Assembly: GCA_035292685.1 (NCBI GenBank)
Contig: DATDPP010000079.1
Location: forward strand, 170,971-234,970
Origin: Acidimicrobiia bacterium
Lineage (GTDB): Bacteria > Actinomycetota > Acidimicrobiia > Spongiisociales > ZC4RG35
Length of the DNA stretch: 64,000 nt
Direction: 5' to 3'
Shown here: positions 5,101-61,858 of the stretch, piece by piece
Layout: each line of letters starts with the position of its first letter
How positions within the stretch are numbered: position 1 is the first letter of the stretch
Position numbers and translations under genes: made by a program
Notes under the pieces: generated by a model
Told to the model about the DNA's origin: nothing
What the model saw: the letters and a program-made list of their open reading frames with translations, nothing else
Database searches by the model: none

Positions 5101-5117
5101 CCCAACCCGCGTTCCTA

Positions 5118-5151
5118 ATGCATCGCGTCACGCATCCGTGACGCGATGCAT
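5118..5151. terminator. Perfect 15-bp inverted repeat ATGCATCGCGTCACG / CGTGACGCGATGCAT with a 4-nt loop, downstream of the DapA-like gene. Read as a rho-independent-type hairpin with no U-tract, or alternatively a palindromic operator.
   Basis: Read directly from the sequence. Confidence 0.5.
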
Positions 5152-5234
5152 CCAGTACAGCCGCGATGCAGGCGAGCGTGCTCTGCACGGCTAGTACCAT
5201 CTGCCGTTCTACCGATCATCAAGGAGAGAACGCC

Positions 5235-5618: not shown

Positions 5619-5734
5619 TCACCGACTAGTCATTTCACGTAAATAACAGGGGGACTCTGGTTACCGACCTCCGTGGGTCGGATAATGTTGCGACGCTGAA
5701 GCAGGCGCGCCGCCGTGTCACGTCAGGGGCTGAA

Positions 5735-6280
5735 ATGGGCAAGGGAGAAAAGAACCGGGGTGCGACCATGGTCGAGGCCGCCATGATCTTCCCTTTGATG
5801 ATCTTGCTCACGGTGAGCATCCTCGAACTGGGGATGGCGTTCAAGGACTTCCTCACTGTCTCCTTCACTGCCCGCGACGCAGCGCGCGTCGGGTCGCTCG
5901 CCGGGAACGACCCGGAGGCGGATTGCGACATCATCCAGAGTGTGGTCGCCGCCTTCGGCCCAACCGATCTCGCCGGAGTGGACATCCTCATCTTCAAGGC
6001 CAACGAAGCGACGGGGAACCCGGTCGTGGGCCAGGTCAACACCTGGACATTGAGGCCCTCGGGTGACCCCACCACCTGTCTTCCCCTCGATTGGTCGATC
6101 ACCGAGAATTGGCCGAGCACGACCCGTCAGGTGAATGTCGGCCCCACTACCAAGCTGGACATACTCGGTGTGACCATCGAGACCACCCACCAGTGGATCA
6201 CCGGTCTGCCGCCTTGGCGGGGAACCATCAACGTGGATAGGACTGCCTTGCAAAGGATCGAGCCGGAGGCCTTCGAATGA
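5735..6280 (+). CDS. TadE-like pseudopilin, subtype A.
   Basis: Leader NRG^ATMVEAAMIFPLMILL. High similarity to the ORF at 1555..2139 (AFKD(Y/F)LTVS, ADC, IFKA, HQWITG, C-terminal RIEPEAFE). Stop overlaps the next start (ATGA at 6277-6280). Confidence 0.65.
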   Translation: MGKGEKNRGATMVEAAMIFPLMILLTVSILELGMAFKDFLTVSFTARDAARVGSLAGNDPEADCDIIQSVVAAFGPTDLAGVDILIFKANEATGNPVVGQVNTWTLRPSGDPTTCLPLDWSITENWPSTTRQVNVGPTTKLDILGVTIETTHQWITGLPPWRGTINVDRTALQRIEPEAFE

Positions 6281-21564: not shown

Positions 21565-22362
21565 GTGAGAACCGCTTTGGTCACCGGGCCTTCGTCGGGG
21601 ATTGGCCGGGCCACCGCCCTTGGTCTCGCCAGGCTGGGGCTTCATGTGGTGGCAGCCGGGCGCTCACCGGTGAGGACCCAGCCAGTGCTGGACCAGATCC
21701 GGGCTGAGGGTGGGTCCGCCGAATATCTCCAGCTCGATCTGGCCTCATGGAAGTCGGTGCAGAAGGCAGCCTCGACCTTGCTCAAGACCGGGCGCCCGCT
21801 CGATGTGCTGGTCAACAATGCGGGGGTCGGCGCCACCAACGGGGTGACCGAGGATGGCTTCGAGGTGCATTGGGGGGTGAACCATCTCGGCCATTTCCTC
21901 CTCACCAACCAACTGGCGCGTGCCTTCGTTGACCGGGCGAGGGTGGTCTCGGTGTCCAGCGATGTGCACCATCGGGCCCGGGAGCTCCATCTGGACCGGG
22001 TTCGGGGTCGGGGTCGGGTCCCGTTCGGATTCGGCTACTACGCGGTCTCCAAAGCAGCAAACATCCTCTTCATCCGCGAGCTGGCCGTGCGCCATCCCGA
22101 ATGGGACTGTCATGCCATGCATCCCGGTCTGACCGACACTCCCTTGATTCCCGGGTACATCCGGCCCTTGATCCGGGGCTCGATGATCACGCCCGAGGAG
22201 GCCTCGGACACGATCATCTGGTGCGCGGTGTCCGACGAGGTCGCCGGCCAGTCGGGCCTCTACTACGCCCGACGCCAGGTCCGGCAGGCCTCCCCACTTG
22301 CCAGCGACGATGCGCTGGCCGCCGAGTTGTGGGAGAAGTCAGAAGAATGGACCGAGGACTGA
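21565..22362 (+). CDS. Short-chain dehydrogenase/reductase (SDR).
   Basis: TALVTGPSSGIGRA (TGxxxGxG), NNAG and the YxxxK region YAVSKAA. Confidence 0.8.
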   Translation: MRTALVTGPSSGIGRATALGLARLGLHVVAAGRSPVRTQPVLDQIRAEGGSAEYLQLDLASWKSVQKAASTLLKTGRPLDVLVNNAGVGATNGVTEDGFEVHWGVNHLGHFLLTNQLARAFVDRARVVSVSSDVHHRARELHLDRVRGRGRVPFGFGYYAVSKAANILFIRELAVRHPEWDCHAMHPGLTDTPLIPGYIRPLIRGSMITPEEASDTIIWCAVSDEVAGQSGLYYARRQVRQASPLASDDALAAELWEKSEEWTED

Positions 22363-22366
22363 ACAC

Positions 22367-22412
22367 GAGGCGGAAGCCCCGGCCGACCGGCGTCTGTTTG
22401 CCCGAGACTGTG
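22367..22412 (+). repeat. Copy A of a ~46-bp intergenic repeat (GAGGCGG.AG...GGCCGACCGGCGTCTGTTTGCCCGAGAC.GTG), upstream of kynA.
   Basis: Near-identical copy at 58552..58597. The core GGCCGACCGGCGTCTGTTTGCCCGAGAC is 28/28 identical. Confidence 0.6.
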
Positions 22413-22493
22413 AAACCGAGAGGCGCGCAATGACACACGCCGATGGCGGTTGGGCGAGGGCAGAGTCGGCCGGCAAGAAGTAGCTTCCGGCAC

Positions 22494-23579
22494 ATGGCCG
22501 AGGAAAACCTCTACTACGGCGATTACCTCCAACTCGACAAGCTCCTTTCCGCCCAACAGTTGGAAAGCGAGCGGGCCGGGAAGCCGATTCACGACGAGAT
22601 GCTGTTCGTCATCGTCCACCAGGCCTACGAGTTGTGGTTCAAGCAGATCCTCTGGGAGATCGACGATCTCCTCGCCATCTTCGGCAGGGATCTCGTCGAC
22701 GAGCAGGACATGGGCACCGCGGTGGGCAGGCTCCGGCGCATCCTGGCGATCCAATCGCTGCTGATCCAACAGGTAGCGGTCCTGGAGACGATGACACCCC
22801 TCGACTTCCTCGATTTCAGAGATCACTTGTTCCCCGCCTCCGGCTTCCAATCCACCCAGTTCCGGATCATGGAGAACAAGCTGGGCATGCGCCGGGAGGA
22901 CAGACTTCTATTGGCAGGAGCCCCGTACACGGCCAGGTTCACTCCTGAAGACAGGGTGATGGTGGAATCGTTCGAAGGTGGGTCGTCGCTGTTCGATGTC
23001 GTCGAGCAATGGCTGGAACGAACACCATTCCTGGAAAGCGGGGGGTTCCAATTCCGTGAGGCCTTTCAGGAGGCGGTACGCGCCAGGCTGGAGGCCGACC
23101 GTGAGGTGGTGGCCACCAACCCCAATCTCACCCCGGGTGAGAGGGACGCGCAACTCAAGGATTTCTCCCTGACGATGGAGCAGTACGAGGCTCTTTTCGA
23201 CGAACAGAAACACGCCGAGCAGCAGAAGGCAGGAACTCGACGTATCAGCCACCGTGCGTTTCAGGCGGCCCTATTCATCAACCTCTATCGGGATCAGCCC
23301 GCCCTGCACGAGCCCTACCAGATCCTGGAGCTGCTGATGGACATGGACGAGGGATTCACCGCCTGGCGGCATCGCCACGCCCAGATGGCCCTGCGGATGA
23401 TCGGGCGTCGCATCGGCACCGGCGGATCGGCTGGGGCCAGATACCTGGAGAAGGCTGCGGAGCGGGGCCGGGTCTTCGGAGACCTCTTCGACCTCTCGAC
23501 CTTTCTCATCCCCCGAGACAGCCGGCCGCTGCTTCCCCGGGACATCGTGGAGGCGATGAGATTCCGGTATCAGGGATGA
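22494..23579 (+). CDS. kynA: Tryptophan 2,3-dioxygenase.
   Basis: YYGDYLQLDKLL...HDEMLFVIVHQAYELWFKQ is the TDO signature. The ATG at 22494 is preferred over the ORF start at 22443. Confidence 0.85.
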   Translation: MAEENLYYGDYLQLDKLLSAQQLESERAGKPIHDEMLFVIVHQAYELWFKQILWEIDDLLAIFGRDLVDEQDMGTAVGRLRRILAIQSLLIQQVAVLETMTPLDFLDFRDHLFPASGFQSTQFRIMENKLGMRREDRLLLAGAPYTARFTPEDRVMVESFEGGSSLFDVVEQWLERTPFLESGGFQFREAFQEAVRARLEADREVVATNPNLTPGERDAQLKDFSLTMEQYEALFDEQKHAEQQKAGTRRISHRAFQAALFINLYRDQPALHEPYQILELLMDMDEGFTAWRHRHAQMALRMIGRRIGTGGSAGARYLEKAAERGRVFGDLFDLSTFLIPRDSRPLLPRDIVEAMRFRYQG

Positions 23580-24709
23580 ACCTGAAGCCGGGTTTCTCAC
23601 GCTTCCTGGGGGCAGCCCCGGATCGTCTTCATTTCGCAGCACATTCCCATCACCCGTGGCCGGATGTGTCCTTCGAGGCACAGCAACGGGCCTGGCTCGA
23701 CGCCGCCGATCTGATGGATGACAAGTGGGAGCACATCTTGGGGACCGTGATCCCCGACACTCAGCGAAGGATCGCGTCCAAGCTCGGGCTCTCCGACCCG
23801 GCCACGCTGACCTTCGCCCCCAACACCCACGACTTCCTAACCCGTCTCTTCTCCTGTCTCGAGCCACCGGTCCGCGTGTTGGCCACCGATGCCGAGTTTC
23901 ACTCGTTCAACCGCCAGTCGCGGAGATGGGAGGAGGGGGGTCTAGCCATCGTGGACCGGATCCCGGCCGAGCCGTTCGATACCTTTGCCGAGCGTTTCAC
24001 GCGAGAGGCTCGGGCCGGTGTACACGACCTGGTGTATTTGAGCCAGGTGTTCTTCGACTCGGCGTTCGTGGTACCGGAGCTGGATCGCGTGATCTCCTCG
24101 GTGCCCGAGGATCGTGCCTTCGTGGTCATCGACGGGTACCACGGCTTCATGGCCCGACCCACCAACCTCGGCGCTATCCAGGACAGGGTCTTCTTTCTCG
24201 CCGGCGGCTACAAGTACGCCATGGCGGGTGAGGGTGTCTGTTTCCTCCACTCACCCCCCGGATATGGGCCTCGACCCGCTGACACCGGCTGGTACGCCGG
24301 TTTCGGCCAGCTGGAGACCGGGGTCAGTGGTCAGGTCTATTACGCCGAGGATGGCTCTAGGTTTGCCGGCGCCACCTACGACCCGTCCGGCATCTATCGG
24401 ATGCGGGCGGTGCTGACCTGGCTGGAGGAGTCCGGGGTGACCGTGGCTGACATCCGGGCCCATGTCGTACACCTTCAGAGCCGGTTGCTGGCGACTGCGA
24501 GCCTCCCCGGCGATTTGATTCCACCGTCCCCGCATGAGCGCGGCAACTTCCTCACCTTCAGGTCAGAGGGTGCTGGTGACATCTACCGGGCCCTCCACGA
24601 GCGGGGAGTGGTCACCGACTATCGGGACGATCGGCTTCGCATCGGCTTTGGCATCTATCACGACGAGGATGACGTCGACCGGTTGGCGGCGGCGCTGGCT
24701 GGGCTATAG
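23576..24709 (+). CDS. kynU: Kynureninase.
   Basis: Kynureninase family similarity (PLP fold, VVIDGYHG...AGGYKY). ATGA overlap with kynA. Confidence 0.82.
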   Translation: MNLKPGFSRFLGAAPDRLHFAAHSHHPWPDVSFEAQQRAWLDAADLMDDKWEHILGTVIPDTQRRIASKLGLSDPATLTFAPNTHDFLTRLFSCLEPPVRVLATDAEFHSFNRQSRRWEEGGLAIVDRIPAEPFDTFAERFTREARAGVHDLVYLSQVFFDSAFVVPELDRVISSVPEDRAFVVIDGYHGFMARPTNLGAIQDRVFFLAGGYKYAMAGEGVCFLHSPPGYGPRPADTGWYAGFGQLETGVSGQVYYAEDGSRFAGATYDPSGIYRMRAVLTWLEESGVTVADIRAHVVHLQSRLLATASLPGDLIPPSPHERGNFLTFRSEGAGDIYRALHERGVVTDYRDDRLRIGFGIYHDEDDVDRLAAALAGL

Positions 24710-24711
24710 GA

Positions 24712-24763
24712 CGTTTTCGCGCGGCAATCTGAGCCTATAGGTTCAGATCCCCGCGCGAAAACG
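24712..24763. terminator. Bidirectional terminator hairpin between convergent kynU and the ridA-like gene. A 13-bp perfect stem CGTTTTCGCGCGG / CCGCGCGAAAACG encloses a loop with a CCTATAGG palindrome.
   Basis: Read directly from the sequence. It spans essentially the entire 56-bp convergent intergenic gap. Confidence 0.6.
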
Positions 24764-24765
24764 GG

Positions 24766-25179
24766 TCAGGGATCGACCACGGCCACCCCGACCAGTTCCA
24801 CCACCGAGCGGGGATCGAAGAGCTCGCTGACCCCGATCAAGGCCATCGGCGGGAAATGATGGCCGAACACCTGGCGGTAGGCGGCGCCGATCGGCCCGAG
24901 GTTCTCGCGGTACGACTCGATCTGGGTGGTGTAGATGGTCAGCGACACCAGGTCACCAGGTTTGCCACCGGCCTCTTCGATGACCCTGGCGACCGCCCGA
25001 CAGGCTTGGGCAAACTGCTCCACAAGGCCATCATCGATGCTCAGATCGGGTTGGTGACCGGTCTGACCTGCGATGTGGAGGGTCCTTCCCCCCGCACTCA
25101 AGGCGCCATGGGAAAACCCGACCGGGGGGCTCATCCCCTCGGGGTCGAAGAGACGATGTCGGCTCACCGGCCTTCCCAC
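24766..25179 (-). CDS. RidA/YjgF family reactive-intermediate deaminase.
   Basis: FSHGALSAGGRTLHIAGQTG...SLTIYTT...MALIGVSEL. Confidence 0.78.
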   Translation of the reverse strand: MGRPVSRHRLFDPEGMSPPVGFSHGALSAGGRTLHIAGQTGHQPDLSIDDGLVEQFAQACRAVARVIEEAGGKPGDLVSLTIYTTQIESYRENLGPIGAAYRQVFGHHFPPMALIGVSELFDPRSVVELVGVAVVDP

Positions 25180-25991
25180 ACCGGCGGCCGCTTCCCGGTG
25201 AAGGCCTCGTAGAACTCGGCGTGGTCCTTGGTCGTCATCAACAGGGCCTGGGTGAACGCCTCCAGCTCGATCGCCGAGCCGAGATCCATGTCCAATTCCC
25301 GACCGATCAACACCTTGGTCGCCCCGTAGGCCAAGGTGGGGCCGTCGGCGAGGCGGCGGGCAAGGTCGGCGACCTCCCCTCCCAGGTCCTGGTCGGGCAC
25401 GACTTTGGAGGCCAGGCCGAGTCCCACCGCCGCCCCGGCTTCGACCTTGTCCCCGAGCAACAACATCTCGGTGGCCCGGCCCAATCCCACGATGCGGGGG
25501 AGGAGGTATGCAGAGCCCATGTCGGCGCCGGCCAGGCCCACTCTGGTGAACAGGAACTGGAACGACGCCGATTGGGCCAGGATCCTCAGGTCGGAGGCGA
25601 GGGCAATCACTGCCCCGGCCCCGGCGGCCACCCCGTTGACCGCCGCAATCACCGGGATTGGGAGACGCCGGATCCGCTCCACTACCGAGCCCGTCATTCG
25701 TGTGAACTCGAGAAGTTCCCGCGAGCCCGATTCCATCAGACTCCCGATGATCTCCTCCACGTCACCCCCGGAGCAGAATCCGCGGCCCTCGCCGGTGATC
25801 ACCAGGACCGCGACATCCCCCCGATGCTCCAGTTCTCCCAGCAGGTCACGGAGATCGGCATAGACGTCGAAAGTCAGGGCATTGAGACGATCCGGGCGAT
25901 TGAAGGTGACGGTGGCCACGCCCCTGTCCACCTGGAATCCGAAATGTTCCCAGGAACCGGTGAAGGCGGCGGAGGAGCGGAATGGGCTCAA
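25164..25991 (-). CDS. Enoyl-CoA hydratase/isomerase (crotonase family).
   Basis: VTFNRPDRLNAL...VITGEGRGFCSGGDV...AAVNGVAAGAGAVIALASD. Confidence 0.85.
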   Translation of the reverse strand: MSPFRSSAAFTGSWEHFGFQVDRGVATVTFNRPDRLNALTFDVYADLRDLLGELEHRGDVAVLVITGEGRGFCSGGDVEEIIGSLMESGSRELLEFTRMTGSVVERIRRLPIPVIAAVNGVAAGAGAVIALASDLRILAQSASFQFLFTRVGLAGADMGSAYLLPRIVGLGRATEMLLLGDKVEAGAAVGLGLASKVVPDQDLGGEVADLARRLADGPTLAYGATKVLIGRELDMDLGSAIELEAFTQALLMTTKDHAEFYEAFTGKRPPVWEGR

Positions 25992-25998
25992 GCGGTGC

Positions 25999-27186
25999 CT
26001 AGACGGTCACCTGGGCTGGTTCTGGCTCGTCTGCTGTCAGGTAGGTGTAGATCGCGTATAGCAGGGTCAGCCCCAGGATCGGGGTGAAGATCCGTTTCAT
26101 GGTGGCGTTCTCGAGAATCAGCGCGACCGCAAACCCGGCGACACCTACATTCGTGCCCCAGAAGATCACCCGATTGACTGAGTCGGAGACATTCGAAGCC
26201 AGAGCCATCATGGCGAAGATCAGATTCGTCACGACCATGATGAAGTTGATGTGGTCGAAGGCGAGGGCAACATTGAGAAGCTCCTCGAACTCCTTGCCGG
26301 TGGAAATCTGGCCGATCAGATACACGATCAGAAGCACAGCGGCAATCAGCCCGAGGACGGCGGTGCGCACGAACTGGTTGATTGGTGCACCACCCCATTG
26401 GGACGGGACGAGTTGCTTTCTGAAACGAACGATCAAGACGATGCTGCCCGCGAGCTGCAGCGCCCCCGCCATCTGAAGCAGCGGGTCGATCCCAAAAAGC
26501 GAACCGGTCACGAACAGAAGGCCTGCCACGAAGAGCAAGAACATCTGGACAACACCCGACTTCGATCGGGACAGACTCGGAATCTGGCGTCCCGGCATGA
26601 GCCACTCGATCATGGCAAGGCCTGCCAGGATCACGAATCCCGCCACCATCGCGCCGGGGTGGGATTCATACAGGCGGTCTGCGTTCTCAGGGGAAACAAT
26701 CAGGACGTCGGCGAGCTGAAGACCCAGGAGCACCCCGAGGATCGCCCCGAGCACCAGAAATCCGAGTGCCAGGGCCATCCCCAGCTCGGCGACATTCCAA
26801 CTGCTGCCTCGCTTCTTTCCTAGGACCCAGATGAACATCCAGGTCATGGCGACAAATGCAAGCGTGCCTCCGATCGGTCGCTGGATGCTCTCCGTGATCA
26901 GATCCAGCGACCAAAATGCCAGCACATACAGCCCTAAAGCCACGATGGCGAAGTTGGCCAACCGGGCCGAGGAGCGATCGTCGGGCGACCCGAACATCCA
27001 GATGGCTGCAGCGAAGGTTCCCAGGGTGACCCACCCCAGGGTTCCGGCGTGCACATGGGTGAGCAACGTGTTCCGTGGCACGTCCCATACGTCGGTGCCG
27101 TTGAGGATCCCGATCACGACCGTGATCACGAATATCACCAAGGCGGCACGAAACAGCTTCCTGACACCGGGCGGAGCGACGCCCAT
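25999..27186 (-). CDS. Polytopic membrane protein of unknown function.
   Basis: About 11 hydrophobic helices. Co-oriented with the downstream hydratase and ridA genes. Confidence 0.4.
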   Translation of the reverse strand: MGVAPPGVRKLFRAALVIFVITVVIGILNGTDVWDVPRNTLLTHVHAGTLGWVTLGTFAAAIWMFGSPDDRSSARLANFAIVALGLYVLAFWSLDLITESIQRPIGGTLAFVAMTWMFIWVLGKKRGSSWNVAELGMALALGFLVLGAILGVLLGLQLADVLIVSPENADRLYESHPGAMVAGFVILAGLAMIEWLMPGRQIPSLSRSKSGVVQMFLLFVAGLLFVTGSLFGIDPLLQMAGALQLAGSIVLIVRFRKQLVPSQWGGAPINQFVRTAVLGLIAAVLLIVYLIGQISTGKEFEELLNVALAFDHINFIMVVTNLIFAMMALASNVSDSVNRVIFWGTNVGVAGFAVALILENATMKRIFTPILGLTLLYAIYTYLTADEPEPAQVTV

Positions 27187-38807: not shown

Positions 38808-39905
38808 ATGACCTCCTCCAGAATCCACGGTCTGGCAGCAGCCGGGGTGTCGGTTTGGTCGGATCAGATCTCACGAGACATGCTCAACTCGGGGGAACTG
38901 GGCCGTCGCATCGAGCGCGACGCGGTGACCGGGGTCACCTCCAACCCAACGATCTTCGCCGGCTGCATCGTCGGCTCCAATGACTATGACGACCAAATCC
39001 ATGATCTGAAATCGGCCGGAATCCCCACCGAGGAAGTCCTCAAGAGCCTCATGGCCGCCGACATCCAGGGGGCTTGTGACCTGTTACTCGGGGTATTCCA
39101 TGAGACCGCGGGAGGAGATGGTTTCGTGTCGGTCGAGGTCTCCCCGACCCTGGCCAGTGACAGCCAGGCGACGGTGGCCGAGGCCCGGGATTGGGTGAAG
39201 CAGATCAACCGCCCCAATCTCCTGGTCAAGGTGCCCGCCACACCCGAGGGAGTTCCCGCGATCAGGTCCCTGATCGGCGAGGGGATCTCGGTGAATGTCA
39301 CACTCATCTTCTCCCTGGAGCGTTATGTCGAAGTGATGGATGCCTATTTGTCCGGGCTCGAGGACTTTCGGTCGGCGGGTGGCGACCTATCGACCATCGC
39401 TTCCGTCGCCTCGTTCTTCGTGTCCCGGTTCGACAGCGAGGTCGATCCCCGGCTGGAGGCACTCGGCACCGACGAGGCCCTGGCCCTGCGCGGAGTGACC
39501 GCGGTAGCCAACGCCAGGGCTGCCTACGGCCTCTTCAACGATTGTTTCGAGTCCGAGCGCTTCCGGTCCCTGGCCGGGGCCGGGGCCAGGCAGCAACGAC
39601 CTTTGTGGGCTTCGACTTCGACCAAGAACCCGGCATATCCCGACCTGCTCTACGTGGAGAGCCTGGTCGCCCCGGCCACCGTCAACACCATGCCGGTGGC
39701 CACCATCGACGCCTATCAGGAACACGGTGACCCGTCACCTACCCCGTTCACAGGAGATGACATCGAGTCCGCGCAACGAAACTTGGATCGTCTCGGTGAG
39801 GCCGGCATCGACTACGCCGACGTGGTTCGCGTCCTCGAGGACGAGGGCGTCGAGAAGTTCACCAAGAGTTGGCTCGAGTTGTTGGAAGACGTGGACCAGG
39901 CCTGA
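38808..39905 (+). CDS. tal: Transaldolase (actinobacterial long type).
   Basis: VSVWSDQISRD, GVTSNPTIF and LLVKVPAT (Schiff-base Lys). Confidence 0.85.
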   Translation: MTSSRIHGLAAAGVSVWSDQISRDMLNSGELGRRIERDAVTGVTSNPTIFAGCIVGSNDYDDQIHDLKSAGIPTEEVLKSLMAADIQGACDLLLGVFHETAGGDGFVSVEVSPTLASDSQATVAEARDWVKQINRPNLLVKVPATPEGVPAIRSLIGEGISVNVTLIFSLERYVEVMDAYLSGLEDFRSAGGDLSTIASVASFFVSRFDSEVDPRLEALGTDEALALRGVTAVANARAAYGLFNDCFESERFRSLAGAGARQQRPLWASTSTKNPAYPDLLYVESLVAPATVNTMPVATIDAYQEHGDPSPTPFTGDDIESAQRNLDRLGEAGIDYADVVRVLEDEGVEKFTKSWLELLEDVDQA

Positions 39906-40495
39906 ACTCCAGCTTCACTCCAGCCGCCAAATGGTCGCCTCTGTCTGTGGACGAAGCCGCAGCTGTGTTCTCGGGAGCACCTTTCCGCTGGTGGATCGCC
40001 GAGGGTCATGCACTCGAGCTCCACACGGGACGATCCTGGCGTGACCACGACGATCTGGATGTCGGGGTCTGCCGGGACCAGTCAGAAGACCTTTTCGCCT
40101 GGCTCTCCGGCTGGATCCTTTGCGTCGCCGCCGAAGATGCATTGGGGTCTTGGGATGGGAGCCCATTGGATGCTCGGACCAACCAGAACAATGTTTGGGC
40201 ACGGCGACGACCCAACATTTGGCTCATGGACCTGACGGTCGGCGACGGAGATGAGGACGTCTGGGTCTATCGGCGAGATCGGTCTGTCACCCGGCCGTGG
40301 CCTGAGGGTGTTCTGCACACCTCTGGCGGAGTCCCGTACCTGGCGCCAGATCTGCAGCTCCTGTTCAAATCCAAGGATCGACGCCGGAAGGATGACATCG
40401 ACGCGGCCCAAGTGATCTCTGGATTGACGACGGCGGAGTGGCAGTTTCTTTCTATACACCTCGCGACGAACCATCCGTGGCGGGAGCTTCGCTAG
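39869..40495 (+). CDS. ANT(2'')-Ia-like (aminoglycoside-2''-adenylyltransferase family) nucleotidyltransferase.
   Basis: FRWWIAEGHALELHTGRSWRDHDDLDVGV aligns with ANT(2'')-Ia LPLWIGGGWAIDARLGRVTRKHDDIDLTF. The true start is probably a few codons inside, after the tal stop (for example GTG near 39947). Confidence 0.5.
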   Translation: MARVVGRRGPGLNSSFTPAAKWSPLSVDEAAAVFSGAPFRWWIAEGHALELHTGRSWRDHDDLDVGVCRDQSEDLFAWLSGWILCVAAEDALGSWDGSPLDARTNQNNVWARRRPNIWLMDLTVGDGDEDVWVYRRDRSVTRPWPEGVLHTSGGVPYLAPDLQLLFKSKDRRRKDDIDAAQVISGLTTAEWQFLSIHLATNHPWRELR

Positions 40496-40591
40496 GGATG
40501 CATGGAGTCCTGAAGAAAATCTTCCCCACCGGGCGCGAACGTCTTGAATCTGTCCCTGCCCGAACGTATGTTCGGAATTGTGGGAAAGAGA

Positions 40592-40864
40592 ATGCGGAGC
40601 TGGGAAGAGTGGGAGGCGAAACTGTCCGAAATGGAGACCCGACAGCGAGCCCGGGCTCTCATCGATTCAAGGGCGCTGCCCACAGAAGAGTTGCTCGAAA
40701 TGCTGACGCAGGACTTTCAGGACCTCCAGATGATCGAGCTCTACGAACGTGAGTGCATCGGCGAGCTGGCCGATCGTCAAATAGAGGAGTGGCTCCATTT
40801 GTGCCCCGATCTGCCGTCGTGGTTCGCCGTGAGGTCAACTGGAATCGTCTCGGAGGGGAGGTGA
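40592..40864 (+). CDS. Small predicted all-helical hypothetical protein (about 90 aa), 8 bp upstream of the HNH gene.
   Basis: ORF with a GGAAAGAG purine-rich stretch 5 bp before the ATG at 40592 and lower GC than its surroundings. No family recognised; the tracked ORF starts at TTG 40544. Confidence 0.3.
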   Translation: MRSWEEWEAKLSEMETRQRARALIDSRALPTEELLEMLTQDFQDLQMIELYERECIGELADRQIEEWLHLCPDLPSWFAVRSTGIVSEGR

Positions 40865-40871
40865 GGGAGTT

Positions 40872-41942
40872 GTGGATCTGACGAGCCTGAACCTGGACCA
40901 GAAAGAACAAACCTTCGTCGACGCCGAGACGGTGATCGCCAAAATGCGGGCGATCCAACTCGACGTGCTCGAGGATTTCGATCACGGTCAAGTGGCAACC
41001 GCTGACGGTTCTCGTTCGCTATCGGAGTGGACTGCGGCCCGCCTCGACATCCACCCGGACACGGCAAAGAGCCTGGTGCGGACCATGCGGCGCACCCAGG
41101 ACCGACCCGACCTGCGCTATTCTCTGGCATCAGGTGAGATCACATTCGATCGGCTGGAGGCGGTCTCCCGGATCTCTGAAGATGTCGGATTGCTCCAGCA
41201 CCTGGACGTGTCCGGTGTACAGCGTGAGGCGGCGAAACGGGCACGAATCACGGCTGAAGACGAATACCGGACCGCTGATGACCGGTTCCTCGTGATGCAG
41301 CCATCTCTGGACGAATCCTGGTGGAAGTTGTGGGGAGGATTGGACGGAGTGTCTGGTGCCATCGTCGACAAGGTGCTCTCCGAGACCGCCGACGGTTTGC
41401 CGCTATTCCCCGACGGGACCAGAGGGGACTCCTCCTGGCGCCGGGCCACCGCACTGGTCGAACTGGCCATAACCGATGACCCTCCCCCGGCCCAGATCAC
41501 GGTATTCGTCGATGCCAAACACGCTGCCGCCTCCAACGGCGAAGCCGGCGTCATCCTCGAAGCCGGACCTCGGATCGGACGCGATGCCCTGGAAGCAATG
41601 CTGTGCGATGCAACCACGGAATTGACCGTCCAAGGAGAAGACGGCACCCCAATGGCCTACGGGCGGAAAACCAGGTCTATCCCACCCGCCCTGCGGCGAG
41701 CCATCATCCACCGAGACGGGGACCGGTGCGCCGCCGACGGCTGCGACAGCAACCATCGGCTCCAAGTACACCACCGGATACCCTGGAGCCAGGGCGGGCT
41801 CACCGACCCCGAGAATCTGATCACACTCTGTTGGTTTCACCATCAGGTCGTAGTCCACCAACGAGGCTTCACTTCCTATCGCCATCCCGACCACGGACGG
41901 ATCCGTTTTCGCCGCGCCGGTCCGAGGGGCCCGCCCGACTGA
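40872..41942 (+). CDS. DUF222 + HNH endonuclease (actinobacterial 13E12-repeat-type HNH protein).
   Basis: C-terminal CAADGCDSNHRLQVHHRIPWSQGGLTDPENLITLCWFHHQ (HNH with CxxC...HH...N...H) and an N-terminal DUF222-like region. GTG start with a GGAGG SD. Confidence 0.75.
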   Translation: MDLTSLNLDQKEQTFVDAETVIAKMRAIQLDVLEDFDHGQVATADGSRSLSEWTAARLDIHPDTAKSLVRTMRRTQDRPDLRYSLASGEITFDRLEAVSRISEDVGLLQHLDVSGVQREAAKRARITAEDEYRTADDRFLVMQPSLDESWWKLWGGLDGVSGAIVDKVLSETADGLPLFPDGTRGDSSWRRATALVELAITDDPPPAQITVFVDAKHAAASNGEAGVILEAGPRIGRDALEAMLCDATTELTVQGEDGTPMAYGRKTRSIPPALRRAIIHRDGDRCAADGCDSNHRLQVHHRIPWSQGGLTDPENLITLCWFHHQVVVHQRGFTSYRHPDHGRIRFRRAGPRGPPD

Positions 41943-42016
41943 CTGACTCTGTCAGCGAACCGACGCTATGGCGTGAGCCGCCCTCGTGCCTGACACGCTC
42001 TGTGCGAGTATCCCCT

Positions 42017-42586
42017 ATGCCTTGGGAGCCTTCCTCGCTGACCCTGTCGTTCTTAGCCCGTGGAAGCGTAGGACGCGTCAACGTGGACGTCTGGGAGAAC
42101 ATCGACCCTTTGAGCATCGGATCCGACCCATCTGCTCTTGGGTTCCCCGTGTGTCGAGCGATCGTGGATTACGACCCAGGCGGGTACAGATCATTGATTG
42201 GATGGGTGCAGGTTGTCGGGCTGGTGTCGGCCGACGGGGGAGCGGCGCGCCAATTCGAAGCTGATCCACTTCAAGTATTCGCTGAAATCGAGACACCCTT
42301 TGCCTTCTACGGAATCAATCCTCAGCTCTTCGATGCTCCATCCCGCGAAGACCGCGATCTCTCCCTCGACTGGCTAGCACATAGTTTCCTTTGCATCGCT
42401 CCCTCAAGTCCCATGGCTACTGAGGTCGAAGCGGTCGCCGGGTTCAGTTGGGGATTCAGACTCGTTAACGGTGAGGTTGTGGCCGTCCCGCCCGAGCGCC
42501 TGCACAGGTCTGATTGGGCTGGGCATACTCCACTGCTTTCCGAGACCTATCTAACGTGGAACTTCGGCGCGAACCAGGATTGGTAG
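42017..42586 (+). CDS. Hypothetical protein (189 aa), unknown family. Convergent with pcrA, with a 12-bp gap.
   Basis: Open frame with protein-like composition in a visibly lower-GC stretch. No recognisable motifs and a weak RBS. The ATG at 42017 is preferred over the long out-of-frame overlap with the HNH gene. Confidence 0.4.
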   Translation: MPWEPSSLTLSFLARGSVGRVNVDVWENIDPLSIGSDPSALGFPVCRAIVDYDPGGYRSLIGWVQVVGLVSADGGAARQFEADPLQVFAEIETPFAFYGINPQLFDAPSREDRDLSLDWLAHSFLCIAPSSPMATEVEAVAGFSWGFRLVNGEVVAVPPERLHRSDWAGHTPLLSETYLTWNFGANQDW

Positions 42587-42598
42587 GTCGGAAGGCGT

Positions 42599-44827
42599 TC
42601 ACGCCCTCTCCAGGGGAGCCCAGGCCAGCAACAGGCGCTTCTTGCCCTGGGTATCGAACATCACCTCGGCCTCGGCCCGATCACCGGAGCCGACCACTTC
42701 GCGAACCGTCCCCAGACCCCACCTGTCGTGACGCACCCGGTCCCCGGGGCCGATCTCGTCGGCTGCCACCGTCGTCCGGGGGCCGTTTACTGCAGCCCGC
42801 TCCGCAGGAGAGCGCCGCTCCCGCTTGCCGGCCTTCTCCACGAGCCCTTCCGGGATCTCGCCGAGAAACCGTGAGGGCGGGTTGTAATTGGAGCCCCCGA
42901 AGAGCATCCGACTCCAGGCTGAAGTCAGGTAGAGACTGTCCTGGGCCCGGGTGATCCCGACATAGGCCAGTCGACGCTCCTCTTCCAACTCGAACGGGTC
43001 CCCGAGCGAGCGCATGTGGGGAAACACCCCATCCTCCATCCCCACGATGAACACTGCCGGGAATTCCAGGCCCTTGGCGGTGTGGAGCGTCATCAGCGTC
43101 ACCGCTCCGGCCCCCTCATCCCACTCGTCGATGTCCGCGACGAGGGCGGTCGACTCCAAGAAGATCTCGAGCCGGCGCAGATTGTCGAGAGAATCGAACT
43201 CTTCGTCACCGATCACCGCACCTTCGTTGGCGCTCTCGAACTCGGAGGCCACACCCACCAGCTCCCGGAGGTTCTCCACCCTTCCCATCGCCTCCACCGT
43301 CTTCTCGGCTTCGAGAGTGGCCAGCATCCCGGTGTCGTCGAGAACGGCCTGAACCGCGGCGGTGACACCCCCTTCGTCGGCGGTTTCCGCCAGATGATCC
43401 ACGATCGCAACGAACTCCCCCACCGCGGCTTGAGCTCGGGTGTTGAGCTGGGGGATCTCCGCCGCTCGTCGCAGGCCATCGAAGAAGCCGATTCGTTGGG
43501 CCTGGCTGAACCGGTCGACATGGGCGAGGGTGGTATCCCCGATCCCGCGGCGCGGCTCGTTGATGATTCGCTTCACCGAGACCTCATCGGAGGGGTTGAC
43601 GATGGCGCGGAGGTAGGCCACCGCGTCTTTGATCTCCTTGCGCTCGTAGAACCTCACCGAGCCCACCACGGTGTAAGGGAGTCCCCGTCTCACGAACACG
43701 TCTTCGATGACACGGGACATTGCGTTGGTGCGATAGAAGACAGCGACATCGGACAGGTTGAGCCCCGCCGACTTGAGCCGCTCGACTTCGTCCACCACAT
43801 AGCCGGCCTCGTCGTGCTCGTCCTCGCCCTCATAGCGGATGATGGGAACCCCGCGACCCCGGTCGGACCACAGGTTCTTCGGGGTCCGCTTGGTGTTGTT
43901 GGCGATCACCGAGTTGGCCGCATCGAGGATGGTCTCGCTCGACCGATAGTTCTGCTCGAGCACGATTATCCGGGCATCGGGATAATCCTTCTCGAAGTCG
44001 GTGATGTTCCGGATGTCCGCCCCGCGGAACCGATAGATGGATTGGTCGGAGTCGCCCACCACGCACAGGTTGCGATGAACGGCTGTGAGCTGCTTGACCA
44101 GGACATACTGCGCCCGATTGGTGTCCTGGTACTCGTCCACCAGTACGTAACGGAACTTGGACTGATATTGAGCCAGGACCTCGGGAAAGGCGCCAAACAG
44201 CTCGACGGCGACCATCAAGAGATCGTCGAAGTCCATTGCCGACGCCTCGAGCAAACGCTGTTGATAGAGACGGTACACATCGGCTACCTGCTCGTGATAG
44301 AAGCCGTCGCCCTGGTCGGCGAAGGTCTCGAAGTCCACCAGCTCGTTCTTGGCCTTGGAGATCACGGCCTTCATTGCCTTGGCCGGGAATCTCTTGCTGT
44401 CCAGATCGAGGTCTTTCAGGACGAGGTTGATCAGCCGGACCGAATCGGCCTCGTCGTAGATCGAAAACCCGGATCGATAACCGAGCCTCGAGGCCTCGCG
44501 GCGCAGGATCCGGACGCATGCGGAGTGAAACGTCGACACCTGCATCGAACGGACGGCACCACCCACGAGAGCGCCCACCCGGCTCCTCATCTCATTGGCC
44601 GCCTTGTTGGTGAAGGTGATGGCCAGGATGGAATCCGGCGCCACCCGGAGGTCTCGGATCAGATGGGCGATGCGGTAGGTGAGAACCCGGGTCTTGCCCG
44701 AGCCGGCGCCGGCAACCACCAGCACCGGTCCCTCGGTGGCGGCCACTGCCTCGCGCTGTGTCGGGTTCAGATCGACAAAGAGCGGGGACTCAGCCGAGAC
44801 GTCGTCGTAGAACCAGTCAACCTGCAT
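42599..44827 (-). CDS. pcrA: ATP-dependent DNA helicase PcrA/UvrD.
   Basis: AGAGSGKTRVLT (Walker A), helicase motifs and a C-terminal Tudor-like tail typical of PcrA. Confidence 0.9.
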   Translation of the reverse strand: MQVDWFYDDVSAESPLFVDLNPTQREAVAATEGPVLVVAGAGSGKTRVLTYRIAHLIRDLRVAPDSILAITFTNKAANEMRSRVGALVGGAVRSMQVSTFHSACVRILRREASRLGYRSGFSIYDEADSVRLINLVLKDLDLDSKRFPAKAMKAVISKAKNELVDFETFADQGDGFYHEQVADVYRLYQQRLLEASAMDFDDLLMVAVELFGAFPEVLAQYQSKFRYVLVDEYQDTNRAQYVLVKQLTAVHRNLCVVGDSDQSIYRFRGADIRNITDFEKDYPDARIIVLEQNYRSSETILDAANSVIANNTKRTPKNLWSDRGRGVPIIRYEGEDEHDEAGYVVDEVERLKSAGLNLSDVAVFYRTNAMSRVIEDVFVRRGLPYTVVGSVRFYERKEIKDAVAYLRAIVNPSDEVSVKRIINEPRRGIGDTTLAHVDRFSQAQRIGFFDGLRRAAEIPQLNTRAQAAVGEFVAIVDHLAETADEGGVTAAVQAVLDDTGMLATLEAEKTVEAMGRVENLRELVGVASEFESANEGAVIGDEEFDSLDNLRRLEIFLESTALVADIDEWDEGAGAVTLMTLHTAKGLEFPAVFIVGMEDGVFPHMRSLGDPFELEEERRLAYVGITRAQDSLYLTSAWSRMLFGGSNYNPPSRFLGEIPEGLVEKAGKRERRSPAERAAVNGPRTTVAADEIGPGDRVRHDRWGLGTVREVVGSGDRAEAEVMFDTQGKKRLLLAWAPLERA

Positions 44828-58659: not shown

Positions 58660-60141
58660 TCAGCTGCTGGCGAGCACCCGCGAGGCGTCCCCGACGAAAG
58701 TGACGACAGCGGGGAACAGCCCAACGATCACGGTGAGGGCGAGCGATAGACCGAGGGCGAGGCGCAGCGATCCAGCAGGGGCGGCCGCGGCGTCGTCCTC
58801 GAACTCCCCGATCGGGTCGTCGATCCACACCGTCTTCACCACCCGGGCGTAGTAGTAGATGGCGATCACTGCGTTGACGGCGGCGATGACAGCCAGGACC
58901 ACTGTCGTGGTGCCTCCCGCGATCATGACCGACCGAAACATCTCGAACTTGGCGAACCAACCAGCAAGCGGGGGGATGCCCGCCAGGCTGAAGAAGAAGA
59001 CCGCCACCAGGATCGCCAGTCGGGTATCGACCCGACCCAGGCCACTCCAGGCGCGAATCTCGCCGGAGCGCGTCTTTCGGGCGCCGGCGATGACAACGGC
59101 GAAGGCACCGAGGTTCATCACCGCGTAGATCGCCAGATAGACCAGCGTCGCAGAGAACGCTTCCTCCAGATTCGCGCCCACCACCGCGGCCGAAGCGAAG
59201 GGCACCAGCATGAAGCCCGCCTGGGCCACCGATGAGTAGGCCAGCAGGCGAACGATGTTGGACTGGCGAAGTGCAGACAGATTCCCAACGGTCATCGACA
59301 GGGCAGCCAGCACCCACAACGCAGGGGCCCATATCTCCGACACACCGGGCAGAGCGAGATACATGACGAGCAACATCGCCACGAACCCGGCTGCCTTCGA
59401 GTTGACCGACAGATAGGCGGTGACCGGGGTGGGTGCACCCTCGTAGGTGTCGGGGGCCCAGAAATGGAACGGAACGGCAGCGATCTTGAACCCGAAGCCG
59501 ACGATCACGAAGAGGATGGCCAGGATCAGTGCCGGCTCGTCCGCCATCCCTGCAGTGGCCTCGGCCAGGCCGGTGAAGGTGACCTCTCCGGTGAGACCGT
59601 AGAGGAACGACATTCCGTAGAGCAGGATGGCCGTGGAGAGGACACCGAGTATGAAGTACTTCATCGACGCCTCGTTGGACTTGACGTCGCCTTTGCGCCA
59701 GCCCGCCAGGAGATACAAGGGGCCGGTCGTCAGCTCGAGAGCGACGAAGAGGATTATGAGGTCGCGGGCCGAGGCCATGACCATCGAGCCCAGGACCGAG
59801 GAGAGCAGCAGGAAGTAGTACTCGCCCTGGTAATAGCGGTCGGACTCGACGTAGTGGTGCGACATCAGGAACACCAGATAGGCCGCCACCACGAACAAGC
59901 CCTTCAACACCAGGGCGAACTCGTCAACCACATAGGAGCCGTCGAACATCGAGATTGTCTCCCCCTCGACCGCGAGAATCACCAGTGGGATGGCGGCCAG
60001 CGCGGTGCCAGCCACCGCCACGGTGGCCGTCCAGTATTTCTGGGGGCGAGGCAGTACCAGATCGATGGTGAACACCGTCAGCAGCGTGGCGATGATGACC
60101 AGCTCCGGGGCAAACGCGACATAGTCGATGTCGAAGGTCAC
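58660..60141 (-). CDS. nuoN: NADH-quinone oxidoreductase subunit N.
   Basis: NuoN/ND2 family multi-TM antiporter-like subunit (FHFWAPDTYEGAPTPVTA). Confidence 0.9.
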   Translation of the reverse strand: MTFDIDYVAFAPELVIIATLLTVFTIDLVLPRPQKYWTATVAVAGTALAAIPLVILAVEGETISMFDGSYVVDEFALVLKGLFVVAAYLVFLMSHHYVESDRYYQGEYYFLLLSSVLGSMVMASARDLIILFVALELTTGPLYLLAGWRKGDVKSNEASMKYFILGVLSTAILLYGMSFLYGLTGEVTFTGLAEATAGMADEPALILAILFVIVGFGFKIAAVPFHFWAPDTYEGAPTPVTAYLSVNSKAAGFVAMLLVMYLALPGVSEIWAPALWVLAALSMTVGNLSALRQSNIVRLLAYSSVAQAGFMLVPFASAAVVGANLEEAFSATLVYLAIYAVMNLGAFAVVIAGARKTRSGEIRAWSGLGRVDTRLAILVAVFFFSLAGIPPLAGWFAKFEMFRSVMIAGGTTTVVLAVIAAVNAVIAIYYYARVVKTVWIDDPIGEFEDDAAAAPAGSLRLALGLSLALTVIVGLFPAVVTFVGDASRVLASS

Positions 60142-60244
60142 GGGGTGACCTTCCGTATTTCGTAATCCGTATTCCGTAATCCGTCAGAGAAGAACGGACA
60201 ACGGAGAACGGAAACCGGGGAACGGCGAGCGAAGCGAGCCACCG
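60142..60244. repeat. Intergenic repeat at the nuoM-nuoN junction: CGTAATCCGT tandem units followed by complementary ACGGA(N)AACGGA units, then CGAGCGAAGCGAG. Forms an imperfect palindrome.
   Basis: Homologous to 63863..63965 (GTGACCT(T)CC...CCGTAATCCGT.ATCCGTAATCCGT...ACGGAAAACGGAAAACGGAA...CGAGCGAGAGCGAG). Confidence 0.65.
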
Positions 60245-61858
60245 TCATCCCCCCGAGCCCAAGGAAGCCACCGTCTCGGAGTTGAAGACGGTGTCCACCA
60301 GCGACATGACGGTGTCGGTGGTGGTGTCGAAGATCACCTTGGGATAGAAGCCGATGACCACGATCAGGATGATCAGGGGAACCCACGCCGTGAGCTCGAA
60401 ACGGTCCACGTCGTGCAATTCCTTTCCCTCCCATTCGGCACCCGGCTCACCAAGGTTCACCTGCTGCAGCATCCACAGCATGTACCCGGCGGTGAGAATG
60501 GTGCCCACCGCACCGAGCACCATTGCGGTCCTGAACACACCGACCGGCAGCCCATCAAGCGGGTTGTAGGAACCCACCAGGGACATGAACTCGCCCCAGA
60601 ACCCGGCCAGCCCGGGAAGACCGAGGGACGCCATCGCGGTAAAGGCCAGGATCCCGCCCATCACCGGCAGCAGCTTGATGTTGCCTCCGAGACGAGACAT
60701 CTCCCGGGTGTGATAGCGATGGCTCATCGACCCGGCGAGGAAGAAGAGGAGGCCCGTGATCAGACCGTGGGCCACCATCCCGATGATTGCCGCGTTGATC
60801 CCGATGTCGGTCAGGGTGGCGATTCCGAGCATCACAAAGCCCATGTGCCCCACCGAGGAGAAGGCGATCAGCCTTTTCATGTCGGTCTGGGCGAGACAGG
60901 CAAGCGACCCGTAGATGATCCCGATCACCGCCAGGATGGCGATTGCCGGAGCCCAACTAACCGCCTCCTGGGGAAGGATGGGGAGCGAGATCCTGATGAA
61001 CCCGTAGGCGCCGAGCTTCAGGAGGATGGCGGCCAGCAGAACCGAGCCCACGGTCGGTGCCGCGGTGTGGGCGTCGGGGAGCCAGGTGTGAAGCGGCCAC
61101 ATCGGCACCTTCACTGCGAACCCGAGGAACATCGCCCCGAATACCAGGAAGGCAAAGGTCCCGGTGAATGACCCCATTGCACCCAGGTTGGTGAGTTCGA
61201 CGATATCGAAGGTGCTTTCGCCGAACTTGCCCGATTCGAAGTAGAGCGCCAGAAACCCCAGCAGCATGAACGCCGAGCCGAACAGGGTGAACAGGAAGAA
61301 CTTGATCGAGGCGTAGATGCGGGTCTCGGACTCCCGAGCGAAGCCCGGGATCTTCCTGGGGGTGCGATCACCCCAGATCCCGATCATGAAGTACATCGGA
61401 AGCAGGACCACCTCGAAGAAGACGAAGAACAGGACCAGATCGAGCGCCACGAAGGTGCCGTTCATGCCTGTTGCCAGGATCATCATCAGAATGAGGAAGG
61501 CCTTGGGTCTCTTCGGCTCGTCCCAATGATTCCAGCTGTAGATCACGGCCAGCACCATGACGAAGGTGGAGAGGACGAGGAGCGGCAGGCTGATTCCGTC
61601 CACCCCGACGTGGTAGTCGGCGTTGATTGCGCTGATCCAGGTTTCGTCGACCTCGAACTGGTAGGTGTTGTATGGGCCGGCTGAGAAATCGAACTGACTT
61701 ATGAGCACCAGTGACAGCACAAAGGCACCCGCGGCCGTGAGCAGACCTACGGTCTTGACGGCGAGCTCGTTGCCCTCCGGCAGGAGACCGATCAGGAGGG
61801 CCCCTGCCAGAGGGAGAAACACGATGAGTGTGAGTCCCCAGGTTTCGAACAGTTCCAT
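60245..61858 (-). CDS. nuoM: NADH-quinone oxidoreductase subunit M.
   Basis: NuoM/ND4 family. Confidence 0.9.
   Translation of the reverse strand: MELFETWGLTLIVFLPLAGALLIGLLPEGNELAVKTVGLLTAAGAFVLSLVLISQFDFSAGPYNTYQFEVDETWISAINADYHVGVDGISLPLLVLSTFVMVLAVIYSWNHWDEPKRPKAFLILMMILATGMNGTFVALDLVLFFVFFEVVLLPMYFMIGIWGDRTPRKIPGFARESETRIYASIKFFLFTLFGSAFMLLGFLALYFESGKFGESTFDIVELTNLGAMGSFTGTFAFLVFGAMFLGFAVKVPMWPLHTWLPDAHTAAPTVGSVLLAAILLKLGAYGFIRISLPILPQEAVSWAPAIAILAVIGIIYGSLACLAQTDMKRLIAFSSVGHMGFVMLGIATLTDIGINAAIIGMVAHGLITGLLFFLAGSMSHRYHTREMSRLGGNIKLLPVMGGILAFTAMASLGLPGLAGFWGEFMSLVGSYNPLDGLPVGVFRTAMVLGAVGTILTAGYMLWMLQQVNLGEPGAEWEGKELHDVDRFELTAWVPLIILIVVIGFYPKVIFDTTTDTVMSLVDTVFNSETVASLGSGG

Follow-up and report, generated by a model that had tools for sequence, protein, structure and literature searches.

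A probable patchwork of separately gained genes between tal and pcrA of an Acidimicrobiia bacterium, with a DUF222-HNH nuclease gene behind a putative damage-type promoter

A 64,000-nucleotide stretch of an Acidimicrobiia bacterium (contig DATDPP010000079.1, positions 170,971 to 234,970; the whole stretch is referred to here as the window) carries an islet of four open reading frames (ORFs), all on the + strand, that occupies positions 39869-42598 between the transaldolase gene tal and the helicase gene pcrA. An earlier note, made from the sequence alone, had taken these genes for a horizontally acquired cassette, possibly a small defence, toxin or resistance module rather than a lone homing nuclease. 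We find that the islet probably consists of three independently gained modules (ORF1; a promoter with ORF2 and the DUF222-HNH endonuclease gene ORF3; and ORF4) and is not a functional cassette, and that ORF2 and the nuclease gene stand behind a putative damage-type promoter with an overlapping LexA-type box. All four ORFs lie where the earlier note had placed them, and the features of the region are as follows.

38880-39905, + strand: tal (transaldolase), the conserved left flank, convergent with pcrA; PF00923 is found on the identical gene of metagenome contig L001.
39869-40495, + strand: ORF1, a predicted nucleotidyltransferase of 208 amino acids (aa) counted from TTG, assigned by PF10706 and by fold.
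40551-40572, + strand: RecA-NDp-like promoter, TGTCCCTGCCCGAACGTATGTT, of the form TGTC-N12-TAnnnT, assigned by conservation within the family.
40561-40574, no strand: LexA/SOS-box-type palindrome, CGAACGTATGTTCG, overlapping the -10 element.
40580-40864, + strand (open frame 40544-40864): ORF2, a small acidic protein with a likely start at GTG 40580 or ATG 40592.
40872-41942, + strand: ORF3, a DUF222 plus HNH endonuclease (PF02720, PF01844).
41943-42016, + strand: spacer between the HNH gene and ORF4, holding TCTGTCAGCGAAC at 41947-41959 and the hairpin ACGC-TATG-GCGT.
42017-42586, + strand: ORF4, 189 aa, of an uncharacterised family with no Pfam match.
42599-44827, - strand: pcrA/uvrD-type helicase, the conserved right flank; Pfam UvrD-helicase, UvrD_C and PcrA_UvrD_tudor are found on the identical gene of L001.

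The same arrangement is present in L001, an ENA metagenome contig that is 99-100% identical to the window, and two more divergent contigs each lack one of the outer genes. L167, a 500-bp contig of ~85-89% nucleotide identity to the window, has tal, ~100 bp and then ORF2-HNH without ORF1; the 3' end of tal is followed by ~40 unaligned bases, the promoter, ORF2 and the first HNH codons, and the segment missing relative to the window (~39914-40511) is essentially the coding sequence of ORF1. L126, which encodes the closest HNH homolog (82%), has only 61 bp between the HNH stop and the pcrA stop and is without ORF4, the missing segment being ~41945-42597. A metagenome scan with ORF3 gave 288 confirmed matching stretches, from which 80 loci with HNH homologs 40-82% identical were kept, and tblastn of ORF1, ORF2 and ORF4 in these 80 loci found nothing. 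No examined homolog of ORF1 or ORF4 has other islet genes nearby. These absences (ORF1 from L167, ORF4 from L126, and all three from the 80 HNH loci) contradict the single linked cassette of the earlier note. Its suggestion of a defence, toxin or resistance module is likewise not borne out, with no significant PADLOC match (ORF3 gives only weak generic HNH-domain matches, E≥0.009, and ORF1, ORF2 and ORF4 give none) and no conserved partner gene for ORF1; nor do we agree that something other than a lone nuclease is involved, the HNH gene being essentially a lone REP13E12-type selfish gene with a lineage-specific leader ORF. Plasmids carry relatives of ORF1 (31-34% identical, on 84 plasmids from diverse phyla), ORF4 (on four Streptomycetaceae plasmids) and the HNH gene (on two), and no close plasmid relative of any of the three was found.

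The nearest genomes are metagenome-assembled genomes of Acidimicrobiia, and in the syntenic relatives Tal is 58-74% and the pcrA product 67-86% identical. Flanking synteny is shared by eight related genomes of Acidimicrobiia; L008-L014 have the order sucD-sucC-B12-binding protein-tal> <pcrA-HisK-CheA, and L007 is rearranged. The tal-pcrA spacing, which the earlier note had proposed to compare across related genomes, varies between 42 bp and 3.2 kb, and the gap is empty or holds other cargo. Gene-free gaps of 42, 89 and 98 bp are present in L013, L011 and L014, respectively, and the gaps of other relatives measure 254 bp (with a 76-aa ORF), 781 bp (encoding a 243-aa membrane protein), 1787 bp (encoding a major facilitator superfamily, MFS, transporter) and 3202 bp (encoding a metallo-beta-lactamase (MBL)-fold protein and a 589-aa reductase). 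None of the four islet ORFs is at this site in L008-L014, so that conservation of the four genes across the lineage, which would have spoken against the accessory character proposed for them, was not found and that character is upheld. Because the order of the flanks is constant while the content of the gap varies, the tal-pcrA junction is a variable spot, and with the same fair confidence that we place in the three-module reading as a whole we regard the spacer between the 3' ends of these two convergent core genes as a tolerant landing spot with genome-specific content.

The HNH gene is itself found at this junction in several relatives. It lies directly after tal in L089/L101, L090, L097 and L130 and directly before pcrA in L126, and in L133 and L098 an MBL-fold gene and a gene for a 637-aa membrane protein separate it from pcrA. 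We note that the MBL-fold gene (217-226 aa) is recurrent cargo at the junction (L089:6080-8653, L133:640-3221, L098:6389-8964, L009:11048-11728), where it is often followed by a gene for a 637-641-aa membrane protein or, in L009, by that for a 589-aa FAD/NAD reductase.

The GC content is 63.6% for the whole window, 63.0% for tal, 63.3% for pcrA and 60.8% for the islet. The earlier hand counts are accurate for the two segments concerned (57.5% at 40440-40870 and 58.5% at 42020-42590), although the background of ~67% set against them was too high. The dip is real, and when all 2730-bp windows of the 64 kb are ranked the islet falls in the bottom 0.1%, but the contrast was overstated, as it amounts to ~3 points or ~2 standard deviations below the mean. 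Similarly low values (<59% in windows of 430-570 bp) also occur at ~500-1500, 5000-7000, 22000-26500 and 59500-61500, and local dips of this size are thus not unique to the islet. GC at the third codon position is the clearer compositional signal and is atypical in all four ORFs (0.674 in ORF1, 0.726 in ORF2, 0.717 in ORF3 and 0.626 in ORF4, versus 0.788±0.05 in 53 long ORFs of the window). The classical hallmarks of a genomic island (integrase, tRNA target, flanking direct repeats) are not seen at the islet. As the earlier note had observed, there is no tRNA (within 30000-52000) and no integrase, the four ORFs having no integrase or recombinase match in Pfam, NCBIfam or PHROGs; boundary direct repeats, which it had failed to find by eye, were also searched for in the islet flanks and none was convincing. 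Direct or inverted repeats and target-site duplications around the islet or its modules were considered and set aside, as the matches were short and compatible with chance. No Rfam RNA family was found within the islet at E≤1.

The region upstream of ORF2 and the nuclease gene contains a -10 element, TATGTT, at 40567-40572, and 17 bp separate it from a possible -35 element (TTGAAT, 40544-40549). Anchored alignment of the upstream regions of HNH homologs shows a conserved CTTGAATCTGTC, then CGAACGTATGTTCG, and then the start codon 5-7 nucleotides (nt) further on. Of 51 distinct HNH loci, 45 have the form TGTC-N12-TAnnnT between -24 and -37 relative to the start codon, as opposed to 3 of 5514 control windows. 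The published RecA-NDp consensus is tTGTCRgtg-8nt-TAnnnT (PMC5656591), and the TGTC-N12-TATGTT of the window fits it as a candidate promoter of this type. A sigma-70 scan missed it (8 of 12 positions matched, with a threshold of 9), and the assignment thus rests on family conservation together with the RecA-NDp consensus.

Within the 64 kb an exact CGAAC-N4-GTTCG occurs just once, as the palindrome CGAACGTATGTTCG, and an identical box is present at -13 to -18 in 34 of 61 HNH homolog loci. Scoring of CGAACNNNNGTTCG with ≤1 mismatch allowed gave a box in 32 of 55 upstream regions, against none of 55 in-gene controls. The spacer of the box is ATAC in L110 and L115 and ATAT ahead of a paralog in L009, where TGTC-N12-TAGGGT is followed by an ideal LexA box, CGAACATATGTTCG (L009:1670-1760). 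The half-sites are therefore kept while spacer and position vary, as expected for an operator. The SOS box consensus of Mycobacterium tuberculosis is TCGAAC(N4)GTTCGA; LexA binds six of the 13E12 genes of that organism in vivo, RecA-NDp is found at others, and DNA damage induces every one of them (PMC3381160). Judged by its letters, CGAACGTATGTTCG is a perfect LexA-type box and a putative operator, and ORF3 would thus share the regulatory architecture of the M. tuberculosis 13E12 genes in a different actinobacterial class.

The behaviour that we infer for this module, from conservation of its sequence and from work on mycobacteria, is as follows. LexA would block the promoter in undamaged cells; upon DNA damage, RecA-stimulated self-cleavage of LexA, possibly with the participation of a PafBC-like activator, would give a leaderless or near-leaderless transcript that encodes the orphan acidic ORF2 first and the HNH nuclease 7 nt later. 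The nuclease presumably nicks or cuts DNA while recombination and repair are active, which would favour its own spread or persistence. No damage-type promoters were found upstream of ORF1 or ORF4 homologs.

The DUF222-HNH label given earlier to ORF3 is confirmed by both Pfam domains, with PF02720 at residues 135-282 (E=5.8e-11, 42.7 bits versus a cutoff of 24.4) and PF01844 at 33.2 bits versus a cutoff of 21.4, the latter a C-terminal ββα-Me motif of the Cys/His zinc type. The motif RCAADGC...VHH...ENL...CWFHH can be read in the sequence, and 15 PHROGs HNH families match. We classify ORF3 as a predicted REP13E12-type selfish nuclease gene. Most of its homologs lie outside the tal/pcrA junction, in many different contexts among the 80 loci, and the tblastn match is split across frames in 11 of these (L130, L131, L146, L148, L150, L151, L154, L156, L158, L163 and L164); this proportion, about one in seven, suggests frameshifted and decaying copies, albeit that assembly errors are also possible. 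Four long contigs of 12-38 kb (L099, L101, L114 and L120) end inside the HNH gene or within ~140 bp of it, as would be expected if a multi-copy repeat breaks assemblies, an observation that is suggestive only. The L009 paralog is a second, distant DUF222-HNH gene (L009:1844-2857), 28% identical to ORF3 and ~8 kb upstream of tal.

A conserved C/A-rich module of ~105 nt lies downstream of the HNH stop in one subfamily of HNH homologs, which has a TTGACA -35 element (L102:1424-1545 and L103:5582-5705, as well as L105, L113, L116, L127, L146, L151, L154 and L159-L161). At the start of the module is a GGGG...CCCC hairpin, and at its end are the hairpin GACGC-GGCA-GCGTC and ...CATGCC; one stem pair covaries (A-U to G-C, in three sequences), and an Rfam search of the conserved modules found nothing at E≤0.1. 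Past the module homology halts abruptly, in at least five flanks that differ from one another, a pattern suggestive of a ~1.3-kb unit with a defined right end. The HNH copy in the window is without this module.

ORF2 encodes an acidic protein of 90-94 aa (isoelectric point, pI, about 4.5) with no Pfam match. Where other loci have the HNH start codon, ORF2 has its own (GTG 40580 in the window, ATG in L167), and the HNH gene that follows ORF2 has a complete N-terminus (MDL...). The tight linkage described earlier stands, with a spacing of 7 nt between the ORF2 stop and the HNH GTG and not the 8 bp given there. A search of 5.8 billion proteins gave only two homologs: one, 97% identical, is a strain variant, and the other, 74% identical, is the copy in L167. 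Relative to the latter, the frame is kept without insertions or deletions over 15% nucleotide divergence, with a ratio of nonsynonymous to synonymous substitution rates (dN/dS) of 0.59. Descent of ORF2 from the DUF222 N-terminus, as a remnant or duplicate, was rejected as unsupported (BLASTP no better than E=0.007 against 19 sequences, no hit with a hidden Markov model of the N-termini, and an hhalign probability of 1.2%). We read ORF2 as a young, lineage-specific leader ORF, probably transcribed together with the nuclease gene. It might modulate or inhibit the nuclease, an idea for which we found no support.

ORF1 is predicted from its modelled structure to be a standalone minimal Pol-beta-fold nucleotidyltransferase of the ANT(2'')/LnuA/MenT1 structural class. 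The earlier ANT(2'')-like label holds at the level of the domain, although PF10706 is borderline (22.8 bits versus a cutoff of 21) and its match is limited to 52 residues at the N-terminus (52 of 149 model positions). There is no NCBIfam model at E≤0.1 and no sequence match to any PDB chain. Among 48 homologs D37 and D39 (the DxD motif) are invariant and D96 is nearly so. The AlphaFold2 (AF2) model has a pLDDT (predicted local distance difference test score) of 96, and Foldseek matches it to LnuA (E=1.7e-5), ANT(2'')-Ia (4wqk; E=3e-5, template modelling (TM) score 0.50) and MenT1 (TM 0.60). The protein would most likely adenylylate or nucleotidylate a small molecule. Its 286 homologs at 50-59% identity are mostly from Acidimicrobiia and lie among unrelated genes; no conserved partner gene is present in the window, in L169/L170 or in L175, which argues against a toxin-antitoxin role.

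A ~600-bp single-gene insertion (~39914-40511) would have brought ORF1 to the junction. The inserted segment contains no recognisable promoter, and ORF1 is therefore likely expressed by read-through from tal. TTG 39869 is the sole canonical in-frame start upstream of the conserved WxPL motif, and ORF1 begun there overlaps tal by 37 nt. Metagenome gene callers start the gene at GTG ~39947 (182 aa) and so cut off the family-conserved WxPL; because the motif lies upstream of that GTG, the long form has to begin within the end of tal, at TTG 39869. Some of the DNA that encodes the long-form N-terminus is also found in L167, which lacks ORF1.

ORF4, described earlier as an unknown protein of 189 aa, has no Pfam match and 191 homologs at the first search depth that are all unnamed. 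The uncharacterised actinobacterial family comprises 746 representative clusters at 50% identity, essentially single-domain proteins of ~190 aa, and its alignment has 28 invariant columns and the strongly conserved stretches LFDAPSR, W-x-AHSFL and GFSWGF. D83, D106, R110, H122 and S123 are among the invariant residues, and C46 is nearly so. In the AF2 model (pLDDT 93) a β-sandwich is joined by a C-terminal helix, and for this model Foldseek found no fold match in the PDB (best E 0.02, TM <0.32) or among the viral structures of BFVD (best E 0.05); a PDB profile search and a Pfam search with 55 family members found none either. No neighbour of ORF4 homologs recurs in nine genomic contexts. ORF4 lies directly after a nuclease gene in two of the nine (the HNH gene here and an SNase gene in L173) and the seven others are without a nuclease; in L173:1247-3043, and also in L174, a 58%-identical homolog is 34 bp downstream of the gene for a 401-aa SNase-domain protein, near an Imm_superinfect gene. 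A nuclease-associated role for ORF4 is a weak lead. We propose that a single-gene module (~41945-42597) brought ORF4, with no functional link to the other modules.

The spacer ahead of ORF4 holds a further observation. Right after the HNH stop, TCTGTCAGCGAAC resembles the TCTGTCAC...CGAAC core of the family promoter; it is ~4 nt out of register and without TAnnnT at the right distance, and so has no fit to TGTC-N12-TAnnnT. It may be the relic of a second promoter or of an element end. No such sequence was seen upstream of ORF4 homologs elsewhere.

Joint acquisition of the four genes as one horizontal cassette, forming a small defence, toxin or resistance module, would account for their common strand and short spacers and for the depressed third-position GC of all four. 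The fold of ORF1 also resembles resistance enzymes and the MenT1 toxin, and HNH nucleases occur in some defence systems, the PADLOC matches to the HNH domain being weak (E≥0.009). However, the genes come and go independently, with ORF1 missing from L167, ORF4 from L126 and ORF2 from all other HNH loci; the ORF1 and ORF4 homologs examined are without other islet genes nearby; PADLOC, NCBIfam and PHROGs yield nothing beyond the generic HNH domain; and no integrase, tRNA or boundary repeats were found. The presence/absence data largely refute such a cassette, and we consider it highly improbable. It is also unlikely that the genes are ancestral in the tal-pcrA gap and were differentially lost in relatives with no horizontal insertion at all. 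The more distant syntenic relatives L011, L013 and L014 have gaps of 42-98 bp that hold no remnants, other relatives have entirely different cargo at the site, and the third-position GC of the four ORFs is below that of host genes; moreover, the nearest non-strain homologs of ORF1 (57-59%) and ORF4 (54-77%) are located elsewhere in other genomes. In favour of ancestral residence stands the HNH gene, which is at the same junction in at least seven related contigs (L089, L090, L097, L126, L130, L133 and L098) with an identity to ORF3 (67-82%) similar to that of the flanking tal (67-72%), values compatible with vertical descent of the nuclease gene. Several points weigh against our preferred reading of three separately gained modules with a LexA-controlled nuclease. 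The state lacking ORF1 rests on one short metagenome assembly, the 500-bp L167; presence and absence at the junction could stem from losses instead of gains; and the 64 kb hold a single HNH copy, so that mobility within the host genome is only putative. In addition, the LexA specificity of Acidimicrobiia is assumed from conservation at the level of the phylum, and the near-invariant GTAT spacer of the close subfamily could reflect descent or constraint by the -10 element and not selection by LexA.

The last of these points bears on whether CGAACGTATGTTCG is a LexA operator at all, or instead came with the element as a site that the nuclease recognises or homes to, or as an operator for autoregulation. 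The same GTAT spacer recurs in 34 loci despite protein identities to ORF3 of only 55-75%, a constancy beyond what a LexA box strictly requires, and the motif always travels with the gene. We nevertheless think a homing or autoregulatory site quite unlikely, since the box is an exact fit to the Gram-positive/actinobacterial LexA consensus TCGAAC-N4-GTTCGA (PMC3381160), and since the -10 hexamer begins with the T, A and T of the spacer, which accounts for their constancy. The variants (ATAC, ATAT) keep the half-sites and the position shifts, even in the 28%-identical paralog, and ~40% of the loci have lost the box yet keep the TGTC...TAnGTT promoter, as expected of a regulatory add-on and not of an essential element end. 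Whether ORF2 could protect the host, either as antitoxin of a MenT-like ORF1 or as an Im-like inhibitor of the nuclease, is a separate matter. The HNH DNases of colicins have immunity proteins that neutralise them and are small, acidic and helical, and ORF2 offers a parallel in its pI of 4.5, its 90-94 aa, its translational coupling to the HNH gene 7 nt away and a frame that stays intact across 15% nucleotide divergence; MenT1 is the best match of ORF1 by TM-score (0.60). An antidote function is all the same very unlikely: ORF2 is confined to a narrow lineage (the two homologs among 5.8 billion proteins), no ORF2-like partner accompanies any of 286 ORF1 homologs or 80 HNH homolog loci, L167 retains ORF2-HNH with ORF1 gone, the dN/dS of 0.59 indicates weak constraint, and the AbiE/MenT-type models of PADLOC do not match ORF1.

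With three separate modules as the preferred reading, the result removes a false lead: the islet is no new defence or toxin cassette but probably an ordinary accessory patchwork of single-gene insertions at a tolerant convergent-gene site. To our knowledge, the damage-response wiring of REP13E12-type DUF222-HNH genes has so far been documented experimentally only in mycobacteria. A RecA-NDp-type promoter and LexA box are conserved by sequence in Acidimicrobiia, a distant actinobacterial class, in dozens of environmental loci, which argues that the coupling between this nuclease and DNA damage is ancient and central to the biology of the element. Natural variants with the box, without it, and with the leader ORF are available for testing the role of the nuclease, and the 190-aa ORF4 family with its 746 clusters is flagged as one with a confidently predicted fold and no structural or functional annotation. 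A bolder proposal, which we regard as a long shot, is that the damage-induced HNH nuclease makes the junction a hotspot of gene gain through breaks at the time of SOS induction, that ORF2 modulates or inhibits the nuclease, and that ORF4 is a new type of nuclease-binding protein. If true, breaks at or near the HNH locus would recruit foreign single genes, ORF1 on one side and ORF4 on the other, with MBL-fold and other genes in relatives. The basis offered for the ORF4 part of this joint proposal, as much a long shot as the rest, is that the protein has no match in the PDB or among viral models and is twice found directly after a nuclease gene.

Two of the four genes can be set against known systems. 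ORF3 was considered as an IscB and rejected, NF040563 giving only a local match (36.2 bits versus a cutoff of 175) to the HNH part; unlike IscB it is without a RuvC domain, and no Rfam ωRNA/HEARO or other RNA family is present in the region. MenT1 (Rv0078A, of MenAT1) gives the best superposition on ORF1 (TM 0.60, root-mean-square deviation 4.3 Å), is of similar length and comes from the same phylum; however, ORF1 has no conserved adjacent antitoxin gene, its identity to MenT1 is 14-16%, and no AbiE/MenT-type model of PADLOC matches it at E≤0.1. With ANT(2'')-Ia and LnuA, ORF1 shares a small single-domain Pol-beta fold of similar size (Foldseek E=1.7e-5 to 3e-5, TM ~0.5), the conserved DxD and third Asp, and its standalone gene, although identity is only 11-13%, PF10706 is partial, and there is no full-length or antimicrobial-resistance model match. 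The closest parallel of ORF3 is the REP13E12 family of M. tuberculosis (e.g. Rv0336, Rv0515, Rv1702c, Rv2100, Rv1588c and Rv0095c). ORF3 differs in its host, which belongs to the Acidimicrobiia and is not a mycobacterium, in its one copy in the 64-kb window, and in the orphan ORF of 90-94 aa between promoter and nuclease, unseen in 80 homolog loci. Nonetheless, its homologs are, like REP13E12, scattered over many contexts and frequently frameshift-disrupted, and ORF3 has the same order of DUF222 followed by a C-terminal HNH domain and, at the level of sequence, the same apparent regulatory logic, with a LexA SOS box and/or RecA-NDp directly upstream (PMC3381160, PMC5656591).

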